DNA from: Escherichia coli
GTDB lineage: Bacteria; Pseudomonadota; Gammaproteobacteria; Enterobacterales; Enterobacteriaceae
DNA length: 64,000 nucleotides
Assembly (NCBI RefSeq): GCF_003790525.1
Contig: NZ_CP033635.1
Direction: 5' to 3' (one strand)
Shown: positions 1 through 35,884 of the stretch, piece after piece
Layout: each line of letters begins with the position of its first letter
Position numbering within the stretch: position 1 is the stretch's first letter
Made by a program: the position numbers and the translations under genes
The notes under the pieces: generated by a model
Database searches by the model: none
The model's input: only the letters and a program-made list of their open reading frames with translations
What the model was told of the DNA's origin: nothing

Positions 1-1443
1 CCGAACATCGCTAACCGCAACAAAGGCGGGCGGCGCAAACCGAAAAAGAATTTTTTCAGCGACGAAGCCATCGAAAAGCTGGAGCAGATTTTCTTTGAGC
101 AGTCTTTCGACTATCAGTTGCACTGGTATCGCGCCGGGCTTGAGCACCGCATCCGCGATATCCTGAAATCCCGCCAGATTGGCGCAACGTTTTATTTTTC
201 CCGCGAGGCGCTGCTGCGTGCCCTGAAAACCGGTCATAACCAGATTTTTCTGTCGGCCAGTAAAACGCAGGCGTATGTGTTCCGCGAATACATCATCGCC
301 TTTGCCCGGCTGGTTGACGTTGACCTGACCGGTGACCCGATTGTCCTGGGCAATAACGGCGCAAAACTGATTTTTCTCGGCACCAACTCCAACACCGCGC
401 AGAGCCATAACGGCGACCTGTACGTCGACGAGATTTTCTGGATCCCGAATTTTCAGGTACTGCGTAAGGTGGCATCAGGTATGGCCTCACAGAGTCACCT
501 GCGCTCGACCTATTTCTCCACCCCGTCCACGCTGGCGCACGACGCCTACCCGTTCTGGTCGGGTGAACTGTTTAACCGGGGACGCGCCAGCGCCGCCGAA
601 CGCGTGGAAATCGACGTCAGTCATAACGCCCTTGCCGGTGGGCTTCTCTGTGCGGACGGCCAGTGGCGGCAGATTGTCACCATTGAGGACGCCCTGAAAG
701 GCGGCTGCACGCTGTTCGACATTGAGCAGCTCAAACGCGAAAACAGCGCCGACGATTTTAAAAACCTGTTCATGTGTGAATTTGTTGACGACAAGGCGTC
801 GGTATTCCCGTTCGAGGAGCTGCAACGCTGCATGGTCGACACGCTGGAAGAATGGGAAGACTATGCGCCGTTTGCCGCCAATCCGTTCGGCTCCCGCCCG
901 GTATGGATTGGTTACGACCCGTCACACCGTGGCGACAGCGCCGGATGCGTGGTGCTGGCACCGCCGGTGGTGGCCGGAGGTAAATTCAGAATACTTGAGC
1001 GTCACCAGTGGAAAGGCATGGACTTTGCCACTCAGGCGGAATCCATCCGCAAACTCACCGAAAAATACAACGTCGAATACATCGGAATTGATGCCACCGG
1101 CCTCGGTGTCGGCGTGTTCCAGCTCGTGCGCTCGTTCTATCCCGCCGCGCGCGATATCCGCTACACGCCGGAAATGAAAACCGCAATGGTGCTCAAGGCA
1201 AAAGACGTCATCCGCCGTGGCTGTCTGGAATATGACGTCAGCGCCACCGACATCACCAGCTCGTTCATGGCTATCCGCAAGACCATGACCAGCAGCGGAC
1301 GCAGCGCCACCTATGAGGCCAGCCGTAGCGAGGAAGCCAGCCACGCCGACCTCGCCTGGGCGACCATGCACGCCCTGTTAAATGAGCCACTCACCGCCGG
1401 TATCAGCACCCCGCTGACATCCACCATTCTGGAGTTTTACTGA
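1..1443 (+). CDS. Phage terminase ATPase (large) subunit, P2 gpP-like; 5' end outside window
   Basis: Frame is open from nt 1 (no stop before the listed 118 start); lies immediately upstream of a 344-aa portal with TGATG stop/start overlap at 1441-1445, as in the P2 P-Q operon. Confidence 0.8.
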   Translation, partial: PNIANRNKGGRRKPKKNFFSDEAIEKLEQIFFEQSFDYQLHWYRAGLEHRIRDILKSRQIGATFYFSREALLRALKTGHNQIFLSASKTQAYVFREYIIAFARLVDVDLTGDPIVLGNNGAKLIFLGTNSNTAQSHNGDLYVDEIFWIPNFQVLRKVASGMASQSHLRSTYFSTPSTLAHDAYPFWSGELFNRGRASAAERVEIDVSHNALAGGLLCADGQWRQIVTIEDALKGGCTLFDIEQLKRENSADDFKNLFMCEFVDDKASVFPFEELQRCMVDTLEEWEDYAPFAANPFGSRPVWIGYDPSHRGDSAGCVVLAPPVVAGGKFRILERHQWKGMDFATQAESIRKLTEKYNVEYIGIDATGLGVGVFQLVRSFYPAARDIRYTPEMKTAMVLKAKDVIRRGCLEYDVSATDITSSFMAIRKTMTSSGRSATYEASRSEEASHADLAWATMHALLNEPLTAGISTPLTSTILEFY

Positions 1444-2477
1444 TGAGCAAGAAAAAAGGGAAAACACCGCAACCTGCGGCAAAAAAAATGACCGCCAGCG
1501 CCCCGAAAATGGAGGCATTCACCTTTGGTGAGCCGGTGCCGGTACTCGACCGCCGTGACATTCTGGATTACGTCGAGTGCATCAGTAACGGCAGATGGTA
1601 TGAGCCACCAGTCAGCTTTACCGGTCTGGCAAAAAGCCTGCGTGCTGCCGTGCATCACAGCTCACCGATTTACGTCAAACGTAACATTCTGGCCTCAACG
1701 TTTATCCCACACCCGTGGCTTTCTCAGCAGGATTTCAGCCGCTTTGTGCTGGATTTTCTGGTATTCGGTAATGCGTTTCTGGAAAAGCGTTACAGCACCA
1801 CCGGTAAGGTCATCAGACTGGAAACCTCACCGGCAAAATATACCCGCCGTGGCGTGGAGGAGGATGTTTACTGGTGGGTGCCGTCCTTCAACGAGCCGAC
1901 ACCTTTCGCGCCCGGCTCCGTGTTTCACCTGCTGGAGCCGGATATTAATCAGGAGCTGTACGGTCTGCCGGAATATCTCAGCGCCCTTAACTCTGCCTGG
2001 CTGAATGAGTCGGCCACGCTGTTCCGCCGCAAGTATTACGAAAACGGCGCTCATGCCGGATATATCATGTACGTCACTGATGCCGTGCAGGATCGCAACG
2101 ATATCGAAATGCTTCGCGAAAACATGGTGAAGTCGAAAGGCCGCAACAACTTTAAAAACCTGTTTCTCTATGCCCCGCAGGGGAAAGCTGACGGCATTAA
2201 AATTATCCCGCTCAGTGAAGTGGCAACGAAGGACGATTTTTTTAATATCAAAAAAGCCAGCGCCGCTGACCTGCTGGACGCGCACCGCATCCCCTTTCAG
2301 TTGATGGGCGGCAAGCCGGAGAACGTCGGGTCGCTGGGTGATATTGAGAAAGTAGCAAAGGTCTTTGTCCGCAATGAGCTTATCCCGTTACAGGACAGGA
2401 TCCGCGAGATAAACGGCTGGCTCGGTCAGGAGGTCATCCGATTTAAAAACTACTCACTGGACACTGACAACGGCTGA
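1443..2477 (+). CDS. Phage portal protein, P2 gpQ-like (344 aa)
   Basis: Size identical to P2 Q; overlapping start with terminase gene; followed by terminator and cos. Confidence 0.8.
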   Translation: MSKKKGKTPQPAAKKMTASAPKMEAFTFGEPVPVLDRRDILDYVECISNGRWYEPPVSFTGLAKSLRAAVHHSSPIYVKRNILASTFIPHPWLSQQDFSRFVLDFLVFGNAFLEKRYSTTGKVIRLETSPAKYTRRGVEEDVYWWVPSFNEPTPFAPGSVFHLLEPDINQELYGLPEYLSALNSAWLNESATLFRRKYYENGAHAGYIMYVTDAVQDRNDIEMLRENMVKSKGRNNFKNLFLYAPQGKADGIKIIPLSEVATKDDFFNIKKASAADLLDAHRIPFQLMGGKPENVGSLGDIEKVAKVFVRNELIPLQDRIREINGWLGQEVIRFKNYSLDTDNG

Positions 2478-2482
2478 ACATC

Positions 2483-2505
2483 GCCGCCTGCGGGCGGCTT
2501 TTTTA
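2483..2505 (+). terminator. Rho-independent terminator after portal gene
   Basis: gccgcc-tgcg-ggcggc hairpin followed by a T-run. Confidence 0.5.
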
Positions 2506-2645
2506 CACCCCGTCATCACGCCCTCACACGTTCGCCACTGTACAAAACACCCCGCAGACACACCAACGCCCCGGCAGGCCGACTAAACGCCATCACGACG
2601 CGCTCAGACGCTGAAAAAATAAAATCAGCACCACCGCCAGCGCGC

Positions 2646-2664
2646 AGTGCTTTCCCCGCCTCGC
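2646..2664. other. Phage cos cohesive-end sequence (P2/186-type)
   Basis: gtgctttccccgcctcgcc is the reverse complement of GGCGAGGCGGGGAAAGCAC, which I recall as the 19-nt P2 cohesive end; position (just 3' of Q) is as expected. Confidence 0.55.
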
Positions 2665-2892
2665 CCGCCCGCTTCATGGGTCGGTTTTGATGCAATTCCA
2701 AAAGCCGTCCAAACTCTCTTAGGCTAAATGTCCAACGAGAAAATAGTTCTTTGAATGTGAATGCATTTTAATGCAGAGTTATGCCCAGCATTTTTGTACA
2801 CTTCGATGTATCAAATGCGCTGCAAACGATCAAATATGGATGTTTTATCAAGCATCCCCCAAAAGATATTTACATCATCCCATGAGGTTAAG

Positions 2893-3966
2893 ATGGATAA
2901 CAAAATCGTAGAAATTGAGACAAATAAGCTTGATTTTGACCCTAAAAACCCACGTTTCTTTCGTCTCAATGATGCCAGTAACGCTGCAACAGTCATTGAG
3001 GAAATGTTAGATGACGAAAGTGTCCACGATCTAATGCTATCAATCGGTCAGCAAGGTTACTTTCCTGGAGAACCTTTATTGGCAGTAAAAAGCAATGGAA
3101 ACTACATCGTGGTTGAGGGAAACAGACGCTTAGCTGCTGTAAAGTTGCTCAATGGAGATCTGCTTCCTCCAAAAAGAAAACTTAAAGGTGTGCAAGAAAT
3201 CATTGATGATACTACCAATAAACCTAAGAAGCTTCCCTGCATCATTTATGAAAACCGAGAGGATGTACTGAGATATATCGGTTATCGTCATATAACTGGG
3301 GTCAAAGAATGGGACTCATTATCTAAAGCCAAATACCTTAAAGAGTTATGTGATACTTTTTATTCACATGAGCCTAAAGAGATAGTATTAAAAAATCTGG
3401 CTCGTGAGATTGGGAGTAAACCACATTATGTTGCAACACTTCTCACTGCACTGAACTTATATGAAGTCGCGCATGACCATGAGTTTTTTAATTTACCCAT
3501 GAAGGCTTCTGACGTGGAATTTTCATATATAACCACAGCTTTGGGATATTCAAAAATCACAAACTGGTTAGGTCTACAGGATAAAAAGGATTTTTTAGAC
3601 CCAAATTTAAATGAAGAAAACCTTAAGCGTTTATTCTCTTGGTTTTTTGTGCCTGACCAACAAGGTAGAACCATCATCGGTGAGTCTCGAAGAATAAAAG
3701 ATATTGCAGCAGTGGTTGAGAAACCCGAAGCAATTGAAATTCTCATGAAAAGTTCAAACTTGGATGAAGCATATCTATATACCAGCGGAGAAAGAGAAGC
3801 ATTAGATAAAGCACTAAACGCAGCTAGTGTTAAATTAAGAGTAGTTTGGGATATGCTACTTAAAGCTAAAGAATTAACATTAGAGCATGAAGAGGCTGCA
3901 TCTGAAATTTTTGAGATGTCAAAAAATATTAGAAATCAGATCAGAAGCAAAAGGGAGGATGATTGA
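2893..3966 (+). CDS. ParB/Srx-like N-terminal-domain protein (hotspot cargo gene 1); ORF open from 2761, start 2893 preferred
   Basis: Motifs LDFDPKNPRFF and IVVEGNRRLAAVKL resemble the ParB PNPxQPR and GERRxRA boxes; GAGG 5 nt upstream of ATG 2893; region looks AT-rich. Confidence 0.7.
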   Translation: MDNKIVEIETNKLDFDPKNPRFFRLNDASNAATVIEEMLDDESVHDLMLSIGQQGYFPGEPLLAVKSNGNYIVVEGNRRLAAVKLLNGDLLPPKRKLKGVQEIIDDTTNKPKKLPCIIYENREDVLRYIGYRHITGVKEWDSLSKAKYLKELCDTFYSHEPKEIVLKNLAREIGSKPHYVATLLTALNLYEVAHDHEFFNLPMKASDVEFSYITTALGYSKITNWLGLQDKKDFLDPNLNEENLKRLFSWFFVPDQQGRTIIGESRRIKDIAAVVEKPEAIEILMKSSNLDEAYLYTSGEREALDKALNAASVKLRVVWDMLLKAKELTLEHEEAASEIFEMSKNIRNQIRSKREDD

Positions 3967-4996
3967 GATTATGATTACAAATCTTGATTCAATGCCTTCT
4001 AATGAGCCTTATTTATGGGCTGATTATATTGAGATATTGGCCTTAACTAATATCGACAGGTCATTCAGTCGAGGAGACCTATATAGCACACTGCAAGCTC
4101 AACCCGAAGCAGTACTAGCTGAAACAGATGAAGCAGAAGAAGAGGGCGTTTATGATGTTGATGATGAAAATGATACGCCTGTACGCAAGAGAACAAAACG
4201 AAGTGTTAGTCGAGCATATACTGACAGAAAGTGGAGCTATGCGATAGGCTTCATACGACAACGCATTGATTTATTTGGGGATAGTTACCCTTTTACTTTA
4301 TCAGAAGACAACGATACTGTAGAGTTACGTGATATATCAGAAAAGCCACTGGAACATTTAGAAAGACTATATTTAGCTTTACTAATCTGTGCTAACATAA
4401 AATATGTCAACATAATGAGCAGAAGAGAGATAACGCGCAGTTTTGAACTAATTAGTTTACCTATTTTTGAAAGCCTAATGCCTAGCGGTAGCATAATAAA
4501 AGCATGCTGGGCTTCTGGTGGTCAAGCGGCCCCTTACACTGGAACTCTATATAATAAATTTAAGAGTATTGCTTCCGATATCCGTTGCACAGCGAACTTC
4601 AAAGAACGAGATTTCAGTCGAGGAAATAGTGGTGACGGAGGCCTTGACATAATTGCCTGGCATCCAATGGGAGATCAACGAGATGCCATCCCTATTTCTT
4701 TTGTTCAGTGTGGCTGTTCTCAAGAAGAGTGGGAAGCGAAGCAGCTTGAGGCCTCACCTGCGATGCTCTACAGTAAATTCCCCGTAGCTCACCGATGGGC
4801 AACTTATTATTTCTTACCTCAAGATCTACGATGGATAGATGGTGAGTGGGCGCATAAAAATAAGTTAGGCGATGCTATTTTTGTTGATCGCCTAAGATTA
4901 ATCAATTTAACCAGAGCATCTGATAATATTGATCACAGTCAAAATATTAGCTATCTAGATATCATCCTTGATCCTTCCAGCGCGATCGCTGCTTAA
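3959..4996 (+). CDS. Hypothetical protein, possible PD-(D/E)xK-like nuclease core in C-terminal half (hotspot cargo gene 2)
   Basis: Start ATG 3959 overlaps gene 1 stop (ATGATTGA), alternative ATG 3971; GGAGG at 3954-3958; acidic then basic tract ETDEAEEEGVYDVDDENDTPVRKRTKR; GGLDIIAW ... EEWEAK fits a D...ExK spacing (weak). Confidence 0.6.
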   Translation: MIEIMITNLDSMPSNEPYLWADYIEILALTNIDRSFSRGDLYSTLQAQPEAVLAETDEAEEEGVYDVDDENDTPVRKRTKRSVSRAYTDRKWSYAIGFIRQRIDLFGDSYPFTLSEDNDTVELRDISEKPLEHLERLYLALLICANIKYVNIMSRREITRSFELISLPIFESLMPSGSIIKACWASGGQAAPYTGTLYNKFKSIASDIRCTANFKERDFSRGNSGDGGLDIIAWHPMGDQRDAIPISFVQCGCSQEEWEAKQLEASPAMLYSKFPVAHRWATYYFLPQDLRWIDGEWAHKNKLGDAIFVDRLRLINLTRASDNIDHSQNISYLDIILDPSSAIAA

Positions 4997-5931
4997 TCCC
5001 ATAAATCTGGAAGGTTTCTAGCAACCGCCTCAAACAATGGAGGCGGTACTGCATTACCTACCACAGTATATTTCATATTAATAGAAGCCCGTTCAGTTTC
5101 TGGGAAAATTAAATCCCCAAAACCTTGTAAAATAGCAGCCTCTCGATAGCTAAACCTACGAGCTGGTGCATCCGAAGTAAATTGCCACTTATCAGGTCCC
5201 AATTTTTCTAATGTTGGACTTATTGGATGTAGAGGCATATGTCTAGGATTTGCAACAATTGTTTTAGATATCTGATCCCAATCTTGCCTACGGTTTCGCG
5301 ATAGATAATACCAATGAAAATCGGCGTCATAAAACTCGCCAACAGGCCAAACAGGCATATGCCCAATAGCATCACGAATTGTGGAATATGGTGTCAAACC
5401 ATCACCATGTGTTGGTTTTGGAAATTTGTATGTAATACCGTAGTCCTTTCGTATTCCTACGATAAAGATTCGCTTCCTATCTTGGGATACCCCATAATGG
5501 GACGCATTCAGAATTTGCGAGCTTACTGTATAACCTGCTTCTTCGAAAACTTTGAATTGATCCTTTAATAAATGCTCAAAGTTACGCCTTACCATACCAG
5601 AGACATTCTCTACAATGAATGCTTTTGGCTTAATTTTACTCAAAGCACGGGCAAACTCTAAATATAGTGTATTAATCTTTCTATCTGCCTTCCTTGCCCC
5701 ACCTTGACTAAATCCTTGGCAAGGATAGCATCCGATGAGCAACTCAGCAGAAGGGAACGACTGGAGCCCTGAGATATCGCCCAAAATGTAGTCAGTTTCA
5801 GGATGGTTTTCTAAGTAAACGTCCCTTGCGTAAGGCAAAATATCATTTGCCATAAGCACATTGAAACCTGCGTTCAAAACTCCCGCATCAGAACCACCAC
5901 ATCCAGAAAAAAGTGAAACTACAGTTGGCAT
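4993..5931 (-). CDS. DNA (cytosine-5)-methyltransferase, short HaeIII/HhaI-size type (312 aa)
   Basis: Motif I FSGCGG, motif IV PCQGFS, motif VI ENV, motif VIII QDRKRIFIVG; AGGAGG-type RBS upstream of start; stop overlaps stop of gene 2 within TTAA at 4993-4996. Confidence 0.9.
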   Translation of the reverse strand: MPTVVSLFSGCGGSDAGVLNAGFNVLMANDILPYARDVYLENHPETDYILGDISGLQSFPSAELLIGCYPCQGFSQGGARKADRKINTLYLEFARALSKIKPKAFIVENVSGMVRRNFEHLLKDQFKVFEEAGYTVSSQILNASHYGVSQDRKRIFIVGIRKDYGITYKFPKPTHGDGLTPYSTIRDAIGHMPVWPVGEFYDADFHWYYLSRNRRQDWDQISKTIVANPRHMPLHPISPTLEKLGPDKWQFTSDAPARRFSYREAAILQGFGDLIFPETERASINMKYTVVGNAVPPPLFEAVARNLPDLWD

Positions 5932-6173
5932 TGACCCCTCCTAAAAACCGACCGCGTATTATAGCGAAACACCCCGTTGGGAAAAGCTAGATTTTGCCAA
6001 GTCTTGATATTCTCACGTTTTAGTAGTTGTGGCCATCTTTAACGAGAAAAAGATAAAATTGACTTCTCATTAATTTTCAATAGGTTTAATTGTAAGCTCA
6101 AACTAACGCCTCGCGACACTCGTTATTCAACCCCGCCAGCCCTGAAAACAAGTTTCACGACTGGCGGCGTTCT

Positions 6174-6392
6174 CTATCGTCTGCGTTGTGGTGGCGCAAC
6201 TCTGGACTGACCGATATGGTTAAACCGCCCGTAATTATCCCGGACTATTTCGGCACACCCGACCAGCTCATCGGGCGTCAGATTTTCGTTGACCATAATC
6301 CGCTGTAAACGCTGAACAATAGCCATCAGCTTGATATTTTTAGTTTTATGGTGCGGTATCTCGCCTGGTATTCTGTGCATTATCCAAGCCAC
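6174..6392 (-). CDS. Small hypothetical protein at cargo/replication-module boundary
   Basis: 72-aa ORF only; overlaps 3' end of ASCH gene; no recognisable motif. Confidence 0.3.
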   Translation of the reverse strand: MAWIMHRIPGEIPHHKTKNIKLMAIVQRLQRIMVNENLTPDELVGCAEIVRDNYGRFNHIGQSRVAPPQRRR

Positions 6393-6832
6393 CCGTTTTG
6401 CTGTGCACGCTCCATCTGTTCATCTGAATAGTTCCATGCTCCATCCGTGGCAACCATTGCCCCGCCAGACATCCCCGTCTCTGGTTCATACATAACAGCA
6501 AGGCCGAGCTGATGCATAATTTCATGATTAATTCTGAATACCAGGCCACGCTCACTAAGTTCTTTCCAGTTCACAATCTCATATGCGCCTGTATTAAGCA
6601 GCTCAATACTTAGCAAGACATAATCTTCCAGCCAGTCTGACAGGTCAGTAACATCTGTTATCCGGGCTTCAACATTTCGCCCCGTATACACACCCTGCAC
6701 CCATTCATACAAAATCAACGTGTCCCCGCGCTCATAATTACGGTCATTTTTCCGGAACTCTGCACGTTTCTTTCCTTCCAGCACAAGGTCGAAATATTTT
6801 GCGTGCAGCTTTACCTCGTGAATTTTTGCCAT
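6380..6832 (-). CDS. ASCH (PUA-like) domain protein at the P2 orf91 position
   Basis: N-terminal MAKIHEVKLHAKYFDLVLEGKKRAEFRKNDRNYERGDTLILYEW resembles ASCH; start ATG 6832 shares a base with the gene A stop (TAATG). Confidence 0.65.
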   Translation of the reverse strand: MAKIHEVKLHAKYFDLVLEGKKRAEFRKNDRNYERGDTLILYEWVQGVYTGRNVEARITDVTDLSDWLEDYVLLSIELLNTGAYEIVNWKELSERGLVFRINHEIMHQLGLAVMYEPETGMSGGAMVATDGAWNYSDEQMERAQQNGWLG

Positions 6833-9159
6833 TATGTCCACTCCATTACTGTTGAGAATCCCGGCCACTCATCAGCGACCGGATACGTGAATTTTTTCCC
6901 GTCATAATTTACGGTCGCGCCACGCGCCAGCGCCTCAAGCTCCCATCGCTGCGGCCTGATACCGTTCTGAGCAAGGTCAACGCGGATACGGGTAATTTGC
7001 GTTCGTTCCGACCGGGTCAGTCTGGCCGATGGCGCTATTTCATGTGGTTTTAACGGGCTTCCGTTTCTCTGCTGACGATTTGGTGTTCTCAGTTCGTGTT
7101 TTAATGCACCTCTGAGCGCCCTCACGACCTCTGGCTCATTCCATTCGATAACACCGTCATCAACCAGATTAAGCACGGCTGCGGCATGTTCATAAGGTGT
7201 GGGAGCCGGTAACGAAGTATCACTGCCGGTGAGCTTTCCACAGTTATTGACAGGACTCCGAGGCGCGGCGATGCCGCTTTTTAAAGTCAAAGGCTCAACG
7301 ACCGGAACTTTCGGCACAATGCGCCAGTCCGTCGTTCTGGTGATATGAATATGACGCGCGCCGAGATGCGGCGCGTAAATACCGACCACTCTCTCGACTT
7401 CTTCCTCGTACTCGTTAACGTCACTCGACGGGCTACGGGCAACCCTGACAGTCTGACAATCGCGCGGGACATTTGCCCCACCCTGCGCGCTGATATACAA
7501 CGCAAAATCACCACTGTCTGCGGCAGCGCGAGCAGCCTCGACGCGTTCGTCAAACTCATCAGCAATACTGACGCCGCGAGGTAATTTGCGTAGTTCACGG
7601 TAAGCCCCCATTGTCGGTAGGCCAACCGTTTTAAATTGCGGAATGCGCCACGTTGACGCCCATGCGGTAACAGCCGCGGCAGTGTCTTTCAGCGGCCTGC
7701 CGGTATCGTTATCGAGCTGACCATCCAGTGCATAGCCGTCGATGTTTTTTGAAATGTATTTCGCGATATACCCCGCAGCACCGCCCCGATTAAGGTGTTT
7801 TGCCTGAAAACGGTTTCGCGCGGCTCCTCTTTCGTCGCCATCCTCTTTGAGCGCATAGCGACGCATGATTTCGATAATCTGGTTACGCTGGCGCGAATTA
7901 CAAAAAAGCATCATATGCCAGTGCGGCGTTCCGTCGTGGTGTGGCTCGACGACACGCAAACCGTAGACCTGTAAATCATTATCCTTGAATGCCGTGCGCA
8001 TCAGGCTCCAGATACGGCAGAGATAACGCTGCGCATCCTTTGGATTAAATGCCTCATCGTTCCAGCCGTGATTAAGCTGCACGGTTTTACTTTCGCCTTT
8101 TCCTACCTGACGTGTCGGGTGATACTTTGACGGCGCGGTCAGCGTGATAAACATCCCCACATCACCCTCTGCAGCGGCGTAACGCTCAATACCGGCAATG
8201 GTGTTCATCAGCTCCATCCGGCGAATTTCAGGATTAGAAATACTGCCCATCACCTTACTGATAAGGTCGATGCGCTCGCCGGTTTCCCTGTTTTCAAGGT
8301 CACACGATTTAAGAAATTCCAGATTTGCCTGGCGGCGCGCACGCACATCACGAATGGCATGTTTACTGGCATAAGGTGAACGGTCTTTATTGACCTCCCC
8401 GACAGCAATCAGTAACGCCTCATGCCAGCGCATACGCTGGCCTTTAAGCTGTCTAATCCACCACTCATCGTTAAACAGGCGGGCAATGGCAGAATATGCC
8501 TGCCTCGTGGTCATCTGCCCTTTACGGTATTTTCTCCAGTACAGCGGGGAAATATTGAAAGCACGTGCAGCGCCAGCAACATGACCATACAGGTGAGCCT
8601 GCGCCTCATCCGTAAACAGCGATTCTTTTTCGCCATGGGCATCCACCCAGGCATCGCAGAGTTCCTCATACATCATGAAAAGCTGCGATGAGATACGGGC
8701 GGCAAACTTTTTCAGCTCCTTGTCATTCATTCCCGGCAGGCGCGCATAGTGGTCACGCTCTGCCAGAAACAGCAACGACGCGTCGGTGTTCATTTCATGG
8801 CGCTGATTCACACGCTCAATGCGCGGCCATAAACGACGCTGAAAAGTGGATGTGAGGAAATAAAACCCGTGCACCGGGCTTTTATTGCGCCGGATGTAGT
8901 CATAGCGTGAAGTAAACAGCGAGCGCAAAAAGTAAGGCAGGCGGTTAATCGTGGATAAAACACCTTGCACCTGACGCATCTCATCACGTGTAAGGGGTCT
9001 TTCGCGCCCGACGGCCTCGCGTGGCGCGTTCCATGCATAAGCACCGGTAAACATCTTACCGGTGCCTGCGGCAAATGCTGACGGAGGGACAAAACGCCCG
9101 GAGGCTTTAACGGCCATATGAGCCAAAAGCCTCTGAACAACGCCTGCTGAGTTGCTCAA
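6832..9159 (-). CDS. Rolling-circle replication initiation endonuclease, P2 gpA-like (HUH superfamily)
   Basis: HUH motif PHWHMMLF and YxxxY motif GYIAKYISK; 775 aa against 761 aa for P2 A; position in early operon. Confidence 0.85.
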   Translation of the reverse strand: MSNSAGVVQRLLAHMAVKASGRFVPPSAFAAGTGKMFTGAYAWNAPREAVGRERPLTRDEMRQVQGVLSTINRLPYFLRSLFTSRYDYIRRNKSPVHGFYFLTSTFQRRLWPRIERVNQRHEMNTDASLLFLAERDHYARLPGMNDKELKKFAARISSQLFMMYEELCDAWVDAHGEKESLFTDEAQAHLYGHVAGAARAFNISPLYWRKYRKGQMTTRQAYSAIARLFNDEWWIRQLKGQRMRWHEALLIAVGEVNKDRSPYASKHAIRDVRARRQANLEFLKSCDLENRETGERIDLISKVMGSISNPEIRRMELMNTIAGIERYAAAEGDVGMFITLTAPSKYHPTRQVGKGESKTVQLNHGWNDEAFNPKDAQRYLCRIWSLMRTAFKDNDLQVYGLRVVEPHHDGTPHWHMMLFCNSRQRNQIIEIMRRYALKEDGDERGAARNRFQAKHLNRGGAAGYIAKYISKNIDGYALDGQLDNDTGRPLKDTAAAVTAWASTWRIPQFKTVGLPTMGAYRELRKLPRGVSIADEFDERVEAARAAADSGDFALYISAQGGANVPRDCQTVRVARSPSSDVNEYEEEVERVVGIYAPHLGARHIHITRTTDWRIVPKVPVVEPLTLKSGIAAPRSPVNNCGKLTGSDTSLPAPTPYEHAAAVLNLVDDGVIEWNEPEVVRALRGALKHELRTPNRQQRNGSPLKPHEIAPSARLTRSERTQITRIRVDLAQNGIRPQRWELEALARGATVNYDGKKFTYPVADEWPGFSTVMEWT

Positions 9160-9382
9160 CCTGCGCGTTTAAATCAGCAAAAGACTTTGCGCTTCCGGTC
9201 AGAATATCGTGATGCATCAGGCCGGAAACGAGCTGGCTTAATTTCGGGTAATAACCAACCACCGCCAGCCATTCCTGACCGGCGTTTTTACCGCTTTCAG
9301 CTCTCTTTTTCTCGTGGAGAATAAACTGAAAGCTGTCACTGGTAACGACATAACGTTCGCCAATTTCAATACGAATACTCAT
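9107..9382 (-). CDS. Phage early-operon hypothetical protein (P2 orf83 position)
   Basis: ORF and synteny only. Confidence 0.5.
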   Translation of the reverse strand: MSIRIEIGERYVVTSDSFQFILHEKKRAESGKNAGQEWLAVVGYYPKLSQLVSGLMHHDILTGSAKSFADLNAQVEQLSRRCSEAFGSYGR

Positions 9383-9603
9383 GCCGTTCTCCGGTAATGT
9401 TTGTTTTTTGCTTCAAAGACTGACTGACAGGAAACACAACGCGTGGCTGACGGATAAGCCGCACGACGGGCAGCAGGTATTGGCGCGTCACACTCTTCGC
9501 AAACCAGCGCAGAAGCACCGCAATGTTTTACCCTTGCCGCGTTAATCTGGCGCTCCAGTAATTCAGCCTGTTGTTCCTGAATAAAATCTACGTTGTCCGG
9601 CAT
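9379..9603 (-). CDS. TraR/DksA-family C4 zinc-finger protein (P2 orf82 position)
   Basis: CxxC ... CxxC pattern (CEECD ... CVSC) in a 74-aa protein. Confidence 0.7.
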   Translation of the reverse strand: MPDNVDFIQEQQAELLERQINAARVKHCGASALVCEECDAPIPAARRAAYPSATRCVSCQSVFEAKNKHYRRTA

Positions 9604-9908
9604 TACCAGTTCCTTTTGTCGTTAAGGTTTTTAAATTCATCAGCGCAATAGCTGGCGATTTCTGTCGTTAATTTCGTCAGTTCATCCACGGAGGAGATTT
9701 GCTTGTGAAACACAGCGCGTTTAACAAGTAAATTGACCACATCAGACAGGAGGTTTAATTCGTTCTGATAAATCGCGATAACAGACTCAGTTATTTCGCG
9801 TTTTTCTTTATCAAGACCAAGTTGAATAAGAGACAAATCGCCATTTTTCATAACGGCGATTTTTAGGGCGTTATTCAGTAATACAACTGAACGAGAACAG
9901 GACATCAA
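9603..9908 (-). CDS. Phage hypothetical protein (orf81 position)
   Basis: ORF, overlapping stop/start chain in operon. Confidence 0.45.
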
Positions 9909-10129
9909 AGCACCTCCCCGCGAGACAATCCGATATTGTGAAATTTTTCCGACTCCTGACTGAGCAGCTCGACTATCTCCACGCGGGATAACTCCGCCTT
10001 TGTGATGTGGCGAATCATGGCGTCAAGATGAGAAGAAAAGCGCGTCGCTGCGTCGGCCTGTGCTTCGGTTCTGGCCTGTTGCAGCAGTAATGCGTATTTA
10101 CCGCACTGATTTTCAGAAACTGTATGCAT
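9905..10129 (-). CDS. Phage hypothetical protein (orf80 position)
   Basis: ORF, operon position. Confidence 0.45.
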
Positions 10130-10192
10130 GACTTTCTCCAGGCAAAAAGAAGCCCCGCACGATTAAGTGCGTTAAAAACTCTGGTTAATTAC

Positions 10193-10693
10193 TTAATGCA
10201 GATATTGCTCTGGTTTTACCGACGTCAGAATTGTCGGTGCATACTCAAACAGGCTGAATAATTCACGTAATGCACGGAATAAAGCATCACGCCAGTAACA
10301 TGATTCTTCATTAATTCGCCAGTATGGCTGGTTGAATTCTTTTTCAGTCAGTCGTGCGTGCATAAATAAAGTGCGACGCTGACTGACTGTTAAAAAACTA
10401 ATATATGCATACTCACTTGCGCCAACCTGACGGCGTTTTGAGAATGCGCCACGCAATTCATCAATTGCACAAACCAGTCGTTCACGTTCGACGTCGTTCA
10501 TTTCTTCAAAACGCATCGTTGCGTGACGCTGTTTTAACTGTGCATGAAAGCAAACCGTTAGCCGTTCGCGCTCCATCATCTGATTATAATAATCACATGT
10601 ATCCTGCCAGCGAGGGACGGCAAGATGCTTGCCAATTATCCGGCGCATAGCTGCTGGCTGTTTTTCAACGAGATTAAGCGTCATCACTGTCAT
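10193..10693 (-). CDS. Phage replication protein, P2 gpB-like (166 aa)
   Basis: Same length as P2 B and same position between cox/orf78 and A. Confidence 0.6.
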   Translation of the reverse strand: MTVMTLNLVEKQPAAMRRIIGKHLAVPRWQDTCDYYNQMMERERLTVCFHAQLKQRHATMRFEEMNDVERERLVCAIDELRGAFSKRRQVGASEYAYISFLTVSQRRTLFMHARLTEKEFNQPYWRINEESCYWRDALFRALRELFSLFEYAPTILTSVKPEQYLH

Positions 10694-10887
10694 TTCCAGC
10701 CCCTCCGGCTTTTCAGAAAGGTCAGAGCCTTTTTTAACGGACTCTGTTTTTTGGTGCGGATAATGATTCCCTTACGCCCCTTACCGTGGGTGATGGTGAA
10801 GTCAATCGCCCTGGGGCTTTCGTTACGCAGTAACTGAGCAATACAACGCGGTTCACTCATAATCACAACCCCATCCACAAAAGCCAT
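10690..10887 (-). CDS. Small phage protein (P2 orf78 position)
   Basis: 65-aa ORF coupled to B. Confidence 0.4.
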   Translation of the reverse strand: MAFVDGVVIMSEPRCIAQLLRNESPRAIDFTITHGKGRKGIIIRTKKQSPLKKALTFLKSRRGWK

Positions 10888-11135
10888 GCATCACGCTGTT
10901 CAACTGGTCGGTTATAAAACGCCTCTCGTACAGCGCGATTAAACTCTGGAATGAAAACCCACTTCTCACCGACACGAGCGTTCGGCTTACTTGGATCACG
11001 AAGCTCAATAACTGGCAACTTATTCTCTTTTACCATCTTGACTACAGCCGTTTCTGGCTTACCAAGTAACTCTGCAAACTTAACCGTATGTACCGCATCA
11101 ATCGGGTACTGAATCACATAGTCATTGACTTCCAT
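10863..11135 (-). CDS. Cox-like excisionase / early-promoter regulator
   Basis: 90 aa against 91 aa for P2 Cox; first gene of early operon, divergent from C-int. Confidence 0.6.
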   Translation of the reverse strand: MEVNDYVIQYPIDAVHTVKFAELLGKPETAVVKMVKENKLPVIELRDPSKPNARVGEKWVFIPEFNRAVREAFYNRPVEQRDAWLLWMGL

Positions 11136-11287
11136 TGATTAGCCCTTTTTGCTTTCGTGTTACCCTTATTAGATCCAGTCCCTTCTAGGTCGCACCTGTC
11201 CTTTCTAGGGACTGGCTAACACACTCAAAAGGTCACCAATACACAACCTTTTGACGGGAATATAAGTCACCAATAGGTTACTGTCAA

Positions 11288-11581
11288 ATGCAGACATTCG
11301 AAAAACTGAAAGCGATTAGGAAAGCAGAAGGCTTAACACAGGCGAAATTCAGCGAAATTAGCGGGATAGCTCTAGGAACAGTCAAAAATTACGAAAGTGG
11401 GCATAAAGACCCTGGTCTCAGCATCGTTATGCGAGTCACAAATACGCCTTTATTTAAAAAATATACGCTCTGGTTAATGACTGGTGATACGTCACCACAA
11501 GCTGGTCAGATCGCGCCGGCTCTCGCACACATTGGGCAAAAACCAACAGAATCAGACCACTCCGAAAAACAGACTGGTTAA
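11288..11581 (+). CDS. Immunity repressor, P2 C-like (HTH)
   Basis: 97 aa; HTH-like segment LTQAKFSEISGIALGTVKNYESG; motif QAGQIAPALAH resembles my recollection of P2 C; upstream of int on same strand. Confidence 0.7.
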   Translation: MQTFEKLKAIRKAEGLTQAKFSEISGIALGTVKNYESGHKDPGLSIVMRVTNTPLFKKYTLWLMTGDTSPQAGQIAPALAHIGQKPTESDHSEKQTG

Positions 11582-11650
11582 CACTCTATAAACATTACAT
11601 TTTCACCATTTGTTACCAAGATGGTGAATACAGCGTCAGAGGGCTTTCTT

Positions 11651-12631
11651 ATGTCAATTAAGAAGCTCGATGATGGACGCTATGAAGTGGACATTAGACC
11701 TCGCGGTCGCGACGGAAAACGCATCCGCAGGAAATTTGAAAGAAAAGCTGAGGCTGTAGCATTTGAGCGATACACAATCGCCTACGCCAGCCAGAAAGAA
11801 TGGGCAGGTCAGCGAGCAGATCGCAGAACTTTGAGTGAGTTGCTGAACATCTGGTGGAAATATCACGGGCAAAACCACGAGCATGGAACAAAAGAGTTTA
11901 ATCATCTGCTCAAAACCATCAGCGGCATAGGTGATATACCAGTGAGCCGGATGAGCAAAAGAGCTTTGATGGATTATCGTTCCATGCGACTACGTGATGG
12001 TATCAGTGCCGCAACGATAAACCGTGACATGTACCGATTATCCGGCATGTTCACAAAATTAATTCAATTGGATGAATTTTCCGGGCAACACCCAATTCAC
12101 GGACTGCCGCCACTGGCGGAGGCCAACCCTGAAATGACGTTCCTGGAAAAAGCAGAAATCGAAAAACTGTTAAATGTTTTGGATGGTGATGACTTACTTG
12201 TCGCACTTTTATGTCTGAGCACTGGAGGAAGATGGACGGAAGTTGCCACGCTAAAACCAGCACAGATTACAAATTGCAGGGTTACCTTCCTGAAAACCAA
12301 AAACGGTAAAAAGCGAACCGTGCCGATTTCTGAGGAACTGGAGAAAAAAGTTAAAGAGGAGGCCAGCGCTAAATTATTCAAAGTTGATTATGAGAAGTTT
12401 TGCGGGATTTTACGCAGAGTGAAGCCAGATATACCACCCAATCAGGCAACCCACATCCTGCGGCATACATTCGCAAGCCATTTCATGATGAATGGGGGCA
12501 ATATAATCGCACTGCAACAGATTCTGGGACATGCGAGCATTCAGCAGACGATGGCCTATGCGCACCTTGCGCCTGACTACCTGCAAAATGCCGTCGCGCT
12601 GAATCCTCTAAAAGGCGGAGTGACGTTATAA
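11651..12631 (+). CDS. Tyrosine integrase, P2 Int-like (ORF open from 11621)
   Basis: C-terminal HILRHTFASHFMMNGGNIIALQQILGHASIQQTMAYAHL tyrosine-recombinase signature; N-terminus MSIKKLDDGRYEVDIRP resembles P2 Int. Confidence 0.9.
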   Translation: MSIKKLDDGRYEVDIRPRGRDGKRIRRKFERKAEAVAFERYTIAYASQKEWAGQRADRRTLSELLNIWWKYHGQNHEHGTKEFNHLLKTISGIGDIPVSRMSKRALMDYRSMRLRDGISAATINRDMYRLSGMFTKLIQLDEFSGQHPIHGLPPLAEANPEMTFLEKAEIEKLLNVLDGDDLLVALLCLSTGGRWTEVATLKPAQITNCRVTFLKTKNGKKRTVPISEELEKKVKEEASAKLFKVDYEKFCGILRRVKPDIPPNQATHILRHTFASHFMMNGGNIIALQQILGHASIQQTMAYAHLAPDYLQNAVALNPLKGGVTL

Positions 12632-12749
12632 ATTTCCCTTCTGAGTGTCCACATAGTGTCCACACTCTCAGAACTTTGTAGCCCTTCCAGTCCCTTATAG
12701 GTTTTCTTAAGTTACTGTTTTCTTACGGAAACCGATGTAAGTGATTGAT

Positions 12750-12777
12750 AAAAAAAACCCCCACATCATGTGGGGGA
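12750..12777 (-). terminator. Rho-independent terminator of cpxP
   Basis: cccccaca-tcatg-tggggg hairpin with A-run on plus strand (T-run on minus) just 3' of cpxP. Confidence 0.5.
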
Positions 12778-12816
12778 AGACAGGGATGGTGTCTATGGCA
12801 AGGAAAACAGGGTTTA

Positions 12817-13317
12817 CTACTGGGAACGTGAGTTGCTACTACTCAATAGCTTCAACGATGAACTTTTTTGCCATTGCGTCACGTCGCGCAACTGCTCCAT
12901 TCGTTGTTGATGTTTCTCGTTTAAAACCGCTTGCTGCTCCGGCGTTAACAGGCGATACATTTGGTTGCGGACTTTTGCCATCTCAACCTGACGAGCAATT
13001 TGCTCATTCGCCATTTTTTCTGCCTGTGCGCGCACAGCGTTTTCATCAAAATTTTCTGCGGTGACAAGGCGATGCATTGTCTCCAGTTCGCTAACATTAA
13101 CAGGAGGCTGTTCGTGCCGGGCCTGTTGCATAAGATCTCGCATCTGCTGACGCTGATGTTCGGTTAAACTTATGCCGTCGAACATATGGCTCTGCGTACT
13201 GCGCTGCGTAAGTTCTTCACCCGGATGCCAGTTATCGCCTGAACCGACTTCAGCAGCGTGGCTTAATGAACTGACTGCCAGCGTTGAGGCCATGACGGCA
13301 GCGGTAACTATGCGCAT
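12817..13317 (-). CDS. cpxP: Periplasmic Cpx-pathway inhibitor/adaptor CpxP
   Basis: Protein [21 protein letters not shown] ... matches CpxP; divergent from cpxRA. Confidence 0.9.
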
Positions 13318-13396
13318 CATTTGCTCCCAAAATCTTTCTGTCGCGATTCAACGATAGAGAGTTTACGATTCAGGCTGCAAACATGCGTCAGGGGGT

Positions 13397-13411
13397 GTAA
13401 AACAACGTAAA
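13397..13411. promoter_or_regulatory. CpxR-P binding box (GTAAA-N5-GTAAA) in cpxP/cpxR divergent promoter region
   Basis: Exact gtaaa-acaac-gtaaa in the intergenic region. Confidence 0.55.
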
Positions 13412-13466
13412 GTCATGGATTAGCGACGTCTGATGACGTAATTTCTGCCTCGGAGGTATTTAAACA

Positions 13467-14165
13467 ATGAATAAAATCCTGTTAGTTGATGATGACCGAG
13501 AGCTGACTTCCCTATTAAAGGAGCTGCTCGAGATGGAAGGCTTCAACGTGATTGTTGCCCACGATGGGGAACAGGCGCTTGATCTTCTGGACGACAGCAT
13601 TGATTTACTTTTGCTTGATGTAATGATGCCGAAGAAAAATGGTATCGACACATTAAAAGCACTTCGCCAGACACACCAGACGCCTGTCATTATGTTGACG
13701 GCGCGCGGCAGTGAACTTGATCGCGTTCTCGGCCTTGAGCTGGGCGCAGATGACTATCTCCCGAAACCGTTTAATGATCGTGAGCTGGTGGCACGTATTC
13801 GCGCGATCCTGCGCCGTTCGCACTGGAGCGAGCAACAGCAAAACAACGACAACGGTTCACCGACACTGGAAGTTGATGCCTTAGTGCTGAATCCAGGCCG
13901 TCAGGAAGCCAGCTTCGACGGGCAAACGCTGGAGTTAACCGGCACTGAGTTTACCCTGCTCTATTTGCTGGCACAGCATCTGGGTCAGGTGGTTTCCCGT
14001 GAGCATTTAAGCCAGGAAGTGCTGGGCAAACGCCTGACGCCTTTCGACCGCGCTATTGATATGCACATTTCCAACCTGCGTCGTAAACTGCCGGATCGTA
14101 AAGATGGTCATCCGTGGTTTAAAACCTTGCGTGGTCGCGGCTATCTGATGGTTTCTGCTTCATGA
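13467..14165 (+). CDS. cpxR: Response regulator CpxR (OmpR family)
   Basis: 232 aa, receiver plus winged-helix; MNKILLVDDDRELT ... Confidence 0.95.
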   Translation: MNKILLVDDDRELTSLLKELLEMEGFNVIVAHDGEQALDLLDDSIDLLLLDVMMPKKNGIDTLKALRQTHQTPVIMLTARGSELDRVLGLELGADDYLPKPFNDRELVARIRAILRRSHWSEQQQNNDNGSPTLEVDALVLNPGRQEASFDGQTLELTGTEFTLLYLLAQHLGQVVSREHLSQEVLGKRLTPFDRAIDMHISNLRRKLPDRKDGHPWFKTLRGRGYLMVSAS

Positions 14166-33383: not shown

Positions 33384-33577
33384 TTAATTGCCTTATAAAT
33401 ATTTAGATAAGAGAGATAATATTTTAAATGAAAAAATGATCCGTCACTATACACATTTTGCTTATAAACAAACCGAAATCATTCACACTCCGAATAATTC
33501 CTGCGACTTAAAATATAAATCGCAGGAAGCGATTTTAATTACCCGCTCTACCACTGGCGCAGGATATAAACTCTCAC

Positions 33578-35884
33578 CTACATTCCATAACGTTCAGAAA
33601 TAGCAGCATGCTTCTCTTCATTCGCCCCGGCTTCTTTGGCAAGACGCCACCAGCACAACGGATGTTCCCAGTCAGCGGTCAATTCGTGCAAGGTCTTATC
33701 GATATCACCTTTAGAAACTGAACGCGGCGCGCTGATAACAAAGTAGAACGCGGGCAGCGGCTGTGCATCTTCTCCCTGCTGGCTGTCCGTTAACGTATAG
33801 TCCTCGTTACTGTTGCTCCAGTAGTACCAGTTTCGTTCACGGAGCGCCTCACGGAAGGCATTAAACTGTTCTTCACCAGGCATGACACCTTCGCAGAACC
33901 AGGACTCGCCGTACTCAGTCGGGATAATGGTTTGCAGGCAGGCATAAAGTGGCGTGAAATTCTTCCGTTCTTCCTCATCCTCTGGTTGGGTGTTCAATAT
34001 TTCCGCATCGAATACCACAACTTCATCAACATGTTGCGGATAATCGGTCCGGTAAGTTGGCTCAATGATCCTTGCTGTTACCGGCCCAATACGTTGAGCA
34101 TAGTAATAGCGGTATTCATAATTTTCCCGGAAGCGAATGTTTAGCAGTCCCCATTTTTCGTCGATAAAACCTTCACCTTCCGTAAGTTCGATTTCCAGTT
34201 CAGCTGCAATAGCACGAACCAAATCCCATTGTTGCAGGATGCTGGCGGTCGCCATGATATCCCACTGGATATTACGAATATCTTCTTCACGGCTAATCAT
34301 CAGTTGCTGCAATTGTTGTAAATAATCCAGCTGTCGATCCCAGGCTTCCTGTTTTTGTGCTGCCCAGGAGCACATGCGATAAACGCCGATCCACTCACGC
34401 CCTTTTTCGTTTTGCAGCAACTGGTGCCCAATCGACTCGAGTTCACTCCAGTCTTCCTGTTGGTTGATCACTCGCGCACGGAACCACAAGGCCATATGTA
34501 GCAGCCCCGCCTGTTCATACTGCTTCGCCAGGTGCTCAATGGTTTGCAGATCGTCACGGTGGAGCAATAAATCCAACAGATCGAAGCAAAGACCATTATC
34601 TTCCTGGATGTGGCTTTCGACGTAGCGTTGCAGAAGTTCAATCGACTCATCAATCGCATTACAGGCGTTTAACGCATTGACCAGTTTGCCCAGCAATTCC
34701 GCATCATCTGGCGCGTTCAGGTAAGCGCGGCGGAATGTTTCGACGTCTTTTTCTGGATCTGGCTGCGTTTCTTCATCGCTATTTTCAGGTACTTCTACAA
34801 CCGGACGAGCAAGCAACTCTGCTTCTTTGGCGGCGATTTTTTCACTCAGTTCGAGAAACTCACGATCAACCCCCAGTAACACGCGTAATTTTGGCATGTG
34901 TCGCTGGGCCAGTTTCATCGCTATTTTGGCAACCCAGACGGATTCACGCTCCAGCGCCAGGGTAATTTGCAGTTTCGCCAGATCAACCACTTTGCGGTGC
35001 GCTCCGGCCTGCGAGCGGTGCTCCAGCATTTTTTGGATGATGCGCGCCAGTTGCCAGTTGTTTCTTTGTGGATGACGGGGAAGTAACACAGTAATGATTT
35101 TCAGCCATGACCCCCATGAATGGGGAGTCAGATCTGACCAACGCGGTAATTCCTCCCAGACTTCTTCGTCCTGCCCGCATAACGCCATGATGTACAGTTT
35201 TTTGAGGTGATTACTAATGCGGTCGCGGCCCCAGTAATCATTGGCTTCTGTCAGCTCATCAATCAGTATGCGTGCTTCATCATAACGCTGAAGTTCAATC
35301 AGAATATCGGCACGAGTATAAAGTAATGCATCAATATCATCTTCCCCGGCTGCTTTAACTGCGTCGATTTGTCGATCCAGATAAGCCAGTGCCTCCTCTA
35401 TTCTTTTGGAATCTATCAGTGCACTGGCATATTCAGTGGACAAACACTGAAAACAGCTCCAGGTCGGATCAATCCGCGCGATGGTTTCTTCACATACCGC
35501 CATACGTTCATTCGCCCAGCCAGGTGCATCAATATTTTCGTAGCAGGCGGATAAATCCTGGGTAACGCAGATAGATTGTGGGCAATCTTTTGTCTCTTCC
35601 CGGTGCGCTTTTTCAAACAGCGCTACCACGTCTGGCAGCACCTTTTCACCTTCTTCATAGTTAGTCAGGCGATGACGCATTTCCCAGTGACCAATAAATA
35701 TTTCCAGCCACGGATTTTTTGCCACCTGGGTAAGTGCTTTTACTTCAGGTAACAGCGAATCGCACTTTTCCATTTGCAGGTGCATAACGCCTTCCGAATA
35801 ATCATCGATAAGTTGCGGAATATACTCCTGCCCGGCATCGCGTAACTCCTTAGTATATTTGTGATACCACTCCCATATATCCAT
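33578..35884 (-). CDS. Hypothetical 768-aa protein, alpha-helical, second gene of HtpG-like operon
   Basis: Start ATG 1 nt downstream of the HtpG-like stop; no catalytic motif recognised; sequence suggests a helical repeat protein. Confidence 0.75.
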   Translation of the reverse strand: MDIWEWYHKYTKELRDAGQEYIPQLIDDYSEGVMHLQMEKCDSLLPEVKALTQVAKNPWLEIFIGHWEMRHRLTNYEEGEKVLPDVVALFEKAHREETKDCPQSICVTQDLSACYENIDAPGWANERMAVCEETIARIDPTWSCFQCLSTEYASALIDSKRIEEALAYLDRQIDAVKAAGEDDIDALLYTRADILIELQRYDEARILIDELTEANDYWGRDRISNHLKKLYIMALCGQDEEVWEELPRWSDLTPHSWGSWLKIITVLLPRHPQRNNWQLARIIQKMLEHRSQAGAHRKVVDLAKLQITLALERESVWVAKIAMKLAQRHMPKLRVLLGVDREFLELSEKIAAKEAELLARPVVEVPENSDEETQPDPEKDVETFRRAYLNAPDDAELLGKLVNALNACNAIDESIELLQRYVESHIQEDNGLCFDLLDLLLHRDDLQTIEHLAKQYEQAGLLHMALWFRARVINQQEDWSELESIGHQLLQNEKGREWIGVYRMCSWAAQKQEAWDRQLDYLQQLQQLMISREEDIRNIQWDIMATASILQQWDLVRAIAAELEIELTEGEGFIDEKWGLLNIRFRENYEYRYYYAQRIGPVTARIIEPTYRTDYPQHVDEVVVFDAEILNTQPEDEEERKNFTPLYACLQTIIPTEYGESWFCEGVMPGEEQFNAFREALRERNWYYWSNSNEDYTLTDSQQGEDAQPLPAFYFVISAPRSVSKGDIDKTLHELTADWEHPLCWWRLAKEAGANEEKHAAISERYGM

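Follow-up and report, generated by a model that had tools for sequence, protein, structure and literature searches.

A P2-type cos site beside the cargo hotspot of a Wphi-like prophage in Escherichia coli

Close to the left end of a 64-kb stretch of Escherichia coli DNA (the whole stretch that was analysed, called the window from here on), a sequence of 19 nucleotides lies between the portal gene of a P2-like prophage and a block of variable genes. The locus raises the question of whether this sequence is the cohesive end of a P2-family phage, and whether it marks the edge of the variable DNA beside it. The best explanation of the locus is based on the identity of the sequence, its position, its conservation profile, the homology breakpoints around it and the presence of terminase genes. 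According to this explanation, to which a probability of about 95% is given, positions 2640-2694 are a cos site in its uncut state, within a Wphi-type prophage of the P2 family that is apparently intact; the phage DNA would be cut there and packaged by P2-type machinery, and the core of the site ends the conserved backbone. Cleavage, the polarity of the overhangs and packaging at this particular site would follow by analogy with the biology of P2 and 186.

Identity and position of the 19-nt sequence

The sequence GTGCTTTCCCCGCCTCGCC is found in the 64-kb window as a single exact copy, on the + strand at 2647-2665. The preliminary description had correctly recognised the 19-mer, although it was placed one base too low, at 2646-2664. 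The reverse complement, GGCGAGGCGGGGAAAGCAC, is identical at 19 of 19 positions to bases 1-19 of phage P2 (NC_001895), where these bases are annotated as 'cosL; left cohesive end' and their repeat at 33575-33593 as 'cosR'. Alignment with the left end of the P2 reference thus shows that the P2 cos sequence given in the preliminary description was right. The genomes of Wphi (NC_005056), P4 (NC_001609) and fiAA91-ss (KF322032) also start with GGCGAGGCGGGGAAAGCAC, and cosL is annotated in the record of the latter. Phage 186 (NC_001317) starts with GGCGTGGCGGGGAAAGCAT, annotated as 'cos; cohesive end', which agrees with the window 19-mer at 17 of 19 positions; the earlier name of 'P2/186 cos end' is therefore exact for P2, whereas 186 differs at two bases.

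A fortuitous match without function was also considered, the GC-rich composition of the local DNA being all that can be said in its favour. However, when dinucleotide-preserving shuffles are used, only 0.01 matches are expected even if three mismatches are allowed, and the 19-mer is embedded in 2.7 kb of DNA showing 97% identity to the left end of P2. Both the expectation and the P2-like flank rule out a coincidence, whose probability is practically zero. No other copy with up to three mismatches was detected on either strand of the 64-kb window.

The following features are located on the portal side of the window, up to and including the 19-mer:

1..1443, + strand: gene of the large terminase subunit (gpP homologue), its 5' end lost at the window edge
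1443..2477, + strand: portal gene (gpQ homologue, 344 aa), Pfam Phage_portal 5.9e-14
2483..2505, + strand: Rho-independent terminator of the P-Q operon, equivalent to tQ (stem and T run)
2647..2665: 19-bp cohesive-end sequence, equal to P2 cosL 1-19, with putative nick sites

The P reading frame is open from base 1 to its stop at 1443 and contains the Pfam domains Terminase_6N (2.9e-60) and Terminase_6C (2e-47); the full gene has 1773 nt according to the annotation in the record of E. coli SMS-3-5. The portal gene has the length and position of Q in P2 (187-1221). The terminator consists of a 6-bp stem made only of G and C (GCCGCC/GGCGGC) followed by TTTTTT, and it is the counterpart of 'tQ' at 160-181 in P2. 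Between the stop of the portal gene at 2477 and the 19-mer there is a gap of 169 nt, the gap in P2 being 167 nt, in good agreement with the distance of about 170 nt downstream of the portal gene, as on the P2 map, that had been proposed before. The order of the genes and sites (P, Q, tQ, cos, cargo, orf91, A) is also that of P2, and the cos sequence occupies its position on the P2 map, beyond the portal gene and the terminator, where it borders on the non-essential region.

The 55-bp cos core and its occurrence in satellites

In order to delimit the site, each reference genome was joined end to end so as to form a circular junction, and these junctions were compared with the window by blastn, with the following results:

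P2 junction: window 1-2694, 97.1% identity
P2 junction: window 6612-10651, 96.9% identity
Wphi junction: window 1-7843, colinear, 98.2% identity
186 junction: window 2270-2694, 75% identity
P4 junction: window 2640-2694 only (55 bp), 89% identity

In these blastn alignments the homology of P2, 186 and P4 ends at the same base, 2694. Two further features can thus be given:

2640..2694: cos core, common to P2, 186 and P4 and supported by the conservation profile
2666..2694: right arm of the cos core, read in P2 orientation as TGCATCAAAA-CCGACCCATG-AAGCGGGCG

The core of the window is identical to that of Wphi (55/55), and it agrees with the cores of P2, P4 and 186 at 52, 49 and 49 of the 55 positions, respectively. 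The match between P4 and the window, of exactly 55 bp, agrees with the published '55 bp long cos site' (PMC9594776, PMC9122126), a figure which both papers credit to Ziermann and Calendar 1990.

The conservation profile was obtained from an exact-match scan of IMG/VR with the 19-mer, which gave at least 120 loci, from which 112 distinct sequences were anchored on the 19-mer. In practically all 112 contigs among the matches listed, conservation extends over 29-30 nt towards the cargo and over 7 nt towards the portal gene. Column by column, conservation in the listed matches of these 112 contigs is high from 29 nt before the 19-mer to about 7 nt after it, and then drops. More than 30 nt out on the cargo side, 110 of the 112 contigs listed are no more similar to the window than random sequence would be, the cargo flank being common to the other two.

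Within the right arm, which differs from P2 at 3 of its 29 positions and is identical to Wphi, two blocks, TGCATTAAAA and AAGCGGGC(G/A), are nearly invariant in the P2-like and the other (P4-like) contigs among the matches listed, and they are separated in those matches by about 10 variable nucleotides. A hairpin at 2667-2681, proposed by a terminator scan, was considered as a structural signal and rejected: in the 115 contigs listed, the left half of the repeat varies while the AAGCGGGC half is fixed. Related to this, no compensatory changes were found among the listed matches of the 115 contigs in the inverted repeat CCG(A/C)CC...GGGCGG that abuts the cut site, and for this reason the right arm is interpreted here as blocks of conserved sequence rather than a conserved hairpin. 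This pattern of conservation argues for blocks that are recognised by a protein.

As the core is also carried by P4, it has to be considered whether the cos site of the window belongs to a P4-like satellite instead of a helper phage. The 19-mer of P4 is identical and its core agrees at 49 of 55 positions; besides, when E. coli matches were sampled, about 17 in 60 covered the core only and were of the satellite type. Nevertheless, the left arm of the site in the window runs without interruption into tQ, the portal gene and the terminase gene with 97% identity to P2, orf91 and gpA follow on the opposite side, and the neighbourhood is devoid of psu, delta, sid and primase genes. A satellite origin is ruled out by this flanking gene content, and the probability left to it is negligible. 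One of the core-only E. coli matches was examined and is a P4-like satellite, with an integrase, a hypothetical gene, a retron reverse transcriptase, cos, psu, a delta-like gene, further genes and a primase. In this satellite (NZ_CP148357.1, 7001-7056), the 55-bp core has the retron reverse transcriptase on the arm that faces the portal gene in the window, and psu on the other one; this order of retron, cos and psu means that the variable genes of the satellite are on the opposite side of cos with respect to the P2-like prophage.

The cargo hotspot next to the core

The end of the homology at 2694 coincides with a drop in GC content, from 0.58-0.59 in the intervals covering 2400-2699 to 0.37 from 2700 on. 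The cargo is therefore considered to extend from 2695 to about 6100, a region with GC values of 0.33-0.46 and one exception (0.50 at 4600-4799). The 19-mer itself had been taken as the left boundary of the cargo; the variable region does lie beyond it, but the homology breaks 29 nt further, at 2694/2695. The features from this point to the end of the prophage are as follows:

2695..~6100: variable cargo (P2 hotspot 1, 'tin-old' region), defined by the homology breaks and the low GC content
2893..3966, + strand: cargo gene 1, ParB-N-like protein (Wphi gp98), RefSeq 'ParB N-terminal domain-containing protein'
3959..4996, + strand: cargo gene 2, 345 aa (Wphi gp96), phrog_3984, no assigned function
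4993..5931, - strand: cargo gene 3, C5 cytosine DNA methyltransferase (Wphi Mth), from Pfam and TIGR
6380..6832, - strand: DUF3850/ASCH protein, homologue of P2 orf91, Pfam DUF3850 1.1e-17 and RefSeq
6832..9117, - strand: replication initiator endonuclease gpA, Pfam Phage_GPA 6e-123, RefSeq 'replication endonuclease'
11651-12631: integrase, RefSeq CDS

P2 shows no homology to the window from 2695 to 6611; the corresponding interval of its genome is occupied by tin, old and the end of orf91. On the far side (6101-6611) the variable region has no sharp edge: in most Peduovirus genomes homology is recovered at about 6101-6124, upstream of a gene for a 68-aa orf92-like protein at 6174-6380, whereas in P2 it does not return until 6612, within the orf91 homologue. 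The orf91 homologue of the window has an extra C-terminal part, DUF7415.

The variability of the region was also evaluated by comparing 5426 complete E. coli genomes with positions 2478-3100 of the window, using a coverage cut-off of at least 80%. Matches were found in 2152 genomes, and only 102 of them reach this coverage and thus the cargo. When 60 evenly spaced matches were inspected, 39 covered the portal side and stopped at 2693-2703 or just short of it, 17 were restricted to about 2638-2714, and 3 were full length.

The tin-old locus of P2 is reportedly the subject of Odegrip 2006, a work cited by both Rousset 2022 and Vassallo 2022. The cargo of the window lies between Q (which ends at 2477) and orf91/A (6380-9117), and the hotspot has been defined as the locus between portal/cos and the replication endonuclease (PMC9122126). 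The cos-adjacent hotspot between gpQ and gpA has been published (Rousset 2022; Vassallo 2022, PMC9519451, as 'P2 defence hotspot #1').

Regarding the products of the cargo genes, the N-terminal part of the first one is the only part that matches the PADLOC models PDC-M38A (9.2e-25) and PD-Lambda-5_A (3.2e-24). Its Pfam ParB_N match has an E value of only 0.021, and it belongs to phrog_3694, to which no function is assigned in that collection. The second product has no match in Pfam, NCBIfam or PADLOC. The third gene, convergent with the other two, encodes a protein with the Pfam domain DNA_methylase (9.9e-62) and the family TIGR00675 dcm (1.8e-54), and it is called mth in the annotation of Wphi. 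Taken as a whole, the cargo gives partial PADLOC matches (PDC-M38A, the N-terminal domain of PD-Lambda-5_A and DruM/MTase_II) and no complete known system. A consensus scan of 2400-3000 did not detect any sigma-70 promoter for the cargo genes. In the literature search no functional description of gp98, gp96 or Mth was found, the accessions of the three RefSeq cargo proteins appear in no searchable paper, and the papers checked report no anti-phage activity of the cassette. From the domain matches it may tentatively be proposed, with somewhat less than even confidence, that gp98, gp96 and Mth form an uncharacterised anti-phage system linked to methylation, which would be a distant relative of PD-lambda-5 and PDC-M38 through the N-terminal domain only.

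The prophage, its virion ends and related phages

Positions 1-14000 of the window are 100% identical to positions 4407564-4421563 of E. coli SMS-3-5 (NC_010498.1), in whose record the prophage is found between fieF and cpxP. The gene of the small terminase subunit and most of the late genes are located outside the window and were read in this matching record only. Going leftward, the SMS-3-5 prophage contains genes for scaffold, capsid, a 'terminase endonuclease subunit', head completion, lysis, baseplate, fibre, sheath, tube and tape measure proteins, that is, the full late set of P2 with both terminase subunits (gpM and the ATPase subunit gpP) and without pseudogene flags. The cognate terminase and portal are therefore encoded in the same element as the cos site: a partial P and Q in the window, and the full P together with gpM in the SMS-3-5 record. 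Beyond the cargo, the DUF3850 (orf91-like) gene is followed by gpA, early genes, cox, the repressor gene and the integrase gene, and then by the host genes cpxP, cpxR and cpxA. The prophage ends shortly past the integrase gene, in the region 12633-12816, and the host gene cpxP occupies 12817-13320 on the - strand, with cpxR and cpxA after it.

A heavily degraded copy of the element is present in E. coli WCHEC020031 (NZ_CP033401.1, 3293894-3318516) at the same fieF/cpxP site, and its place between both genes shows the insertion site. In this copy the genes for portal, sheath, gpV and gpA are truncated pseudogenes, and the cos site and the three cargo genes are kept with 100% identity; as they are intact amid truncated genes, the cargo has been kept while the phage backbone decayed.

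The existence of such degraded relatives led to the consideration of a further possibility, namely that the cos site of the window is an inactive relic in a defective prophage which produces no phage, so that it is never cut or packaged. Against this, every late and early P2 gene is full length and free of pseudogene flags in the 100% identical SMS-3-5 copy, which is annotated as fully intact. Besides, the P frame is open up to the window edge, Q and A are intact, and the core is identical at 55 of 55 positions to that of Wphi, deposited as a complete phage genome. Even in a defective prophage, moreover, a P2-like phage that superinfects the cell could supply a terminase able to cut the site. 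A relic is thus very improbable, and the locus continues to be described here as the cos site of an apparently intact prophage.

The ends of virion DNA map to the site in related phages, as judged from deposited phage genomes only. The base aligned to position 2665 of the window is exactly the first or the last one in at least 15 linear Peduovirus genomes that have been deposited, and position 2666 is matched by the right end of Wphi and by a terminus of OU784549. For some of these records the termini were probably chosen because of their homology to P2 and not measured, and consequently they constitute supportive but not fully independent evidence. In the record of 186 it is indicated that 'top strand cut at 5' end and bottom strand cut at 3' end'. 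By analogy with the annotation of P2 and 186, the nicks would fall at 2646|2647 on the + strand and at 2665|2666 on the - strand and would leave 5' overhangs.

The following sequence of events can be proposed: i) excision and replication of the prophage would generate circular phage DNA bearing the 55-bp core, ii) the terminase, with gpM as small and gpP as large subunit, would recognise the core on this circular DNA, iii) both strands would be nicked 19 bp apart at the positions indicated above, iv) the genome would become linear, with cohesive 5' ends of 19 nt and with GGCGAGGCGGGGAAAGCAC at the left (portal-gene) end, and v) this linear DNA would pass through the gpQ portal into the procapsid and be packaged. 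No observation made in this analysis speaks against this scheme. P2-type prophages are poorly inducible. As they carry the same core, P4-like satellites would be packaged by the same machinery.

The 19-mer is the canonical and well-characterised P2-type cos of a Wphi-like prophage, it lies beside a published hotspot, and it is in this sense already known; the existing picture of P2-family phages is not changed by it. Its value is that of a reliable landmark, which would fix where the packaged DNA of this prophage physically begins and ends. The site also indicates that the element could serve P4-like satellites as a helper. On the other side, the left edge of the hotspot, now placed to the base (2694/2695), helps in annotation and in extraction of the cargo cassette.

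Among the known phages compared, Wphi (NC_005056/AY135739), a P2-related phage from E. coli W, has a core identical to that of the window, and its cargo (gp98, gp96, Mth, gp92 and orf91) is 99.5% identical. The genome of E. coli W matches positions 1-14000 of the window at 98.5%, including the cpxP side of the insertion. The differences from Wphi consist of about 1.8% nucleotide divergence in the backbone and of the host, which is SMS-3-5 and not W. OU784549, deposited as 'Peduovirus P2', is closer than Wphi and 100% identical across the cargo.

P2 itself shares with the window the 19-nt end, the order of portal gene Q, tQ and cos, and a core that agrees at 52 positions, and it also has non-essential genes directly past the right arm that are transcribed away from cos. 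However, P2 carries old and tin in the hotspot, whereas the window carries the ParB-N-like gene, the gp96 homologue and the C5 methyltransferase gene, and P2 has three substitutions in the right arm. Phage 186 is similar in having a portal gene (W), a terminator (tW) and then cos, with a 19-nt 5' overhang and a core that agrees at 49 positions, but it has two substitutions in the 19-mer (GGCGTGGCGGGGAAAGCAT) and its flanking left arm is only 75% identical. P4 and the P4-like satellites have the identical 19-mer, the 55-bp core being the only homology between both types of element, and P4 differs from the prophage of the window in that it is devoid of portal and terminase genes. Finally, the published P2 hotspot resembles the locus of the window in its location next to cos, in the interval between portal and endonuclease genes, in its extreme variability and in its low GC content.
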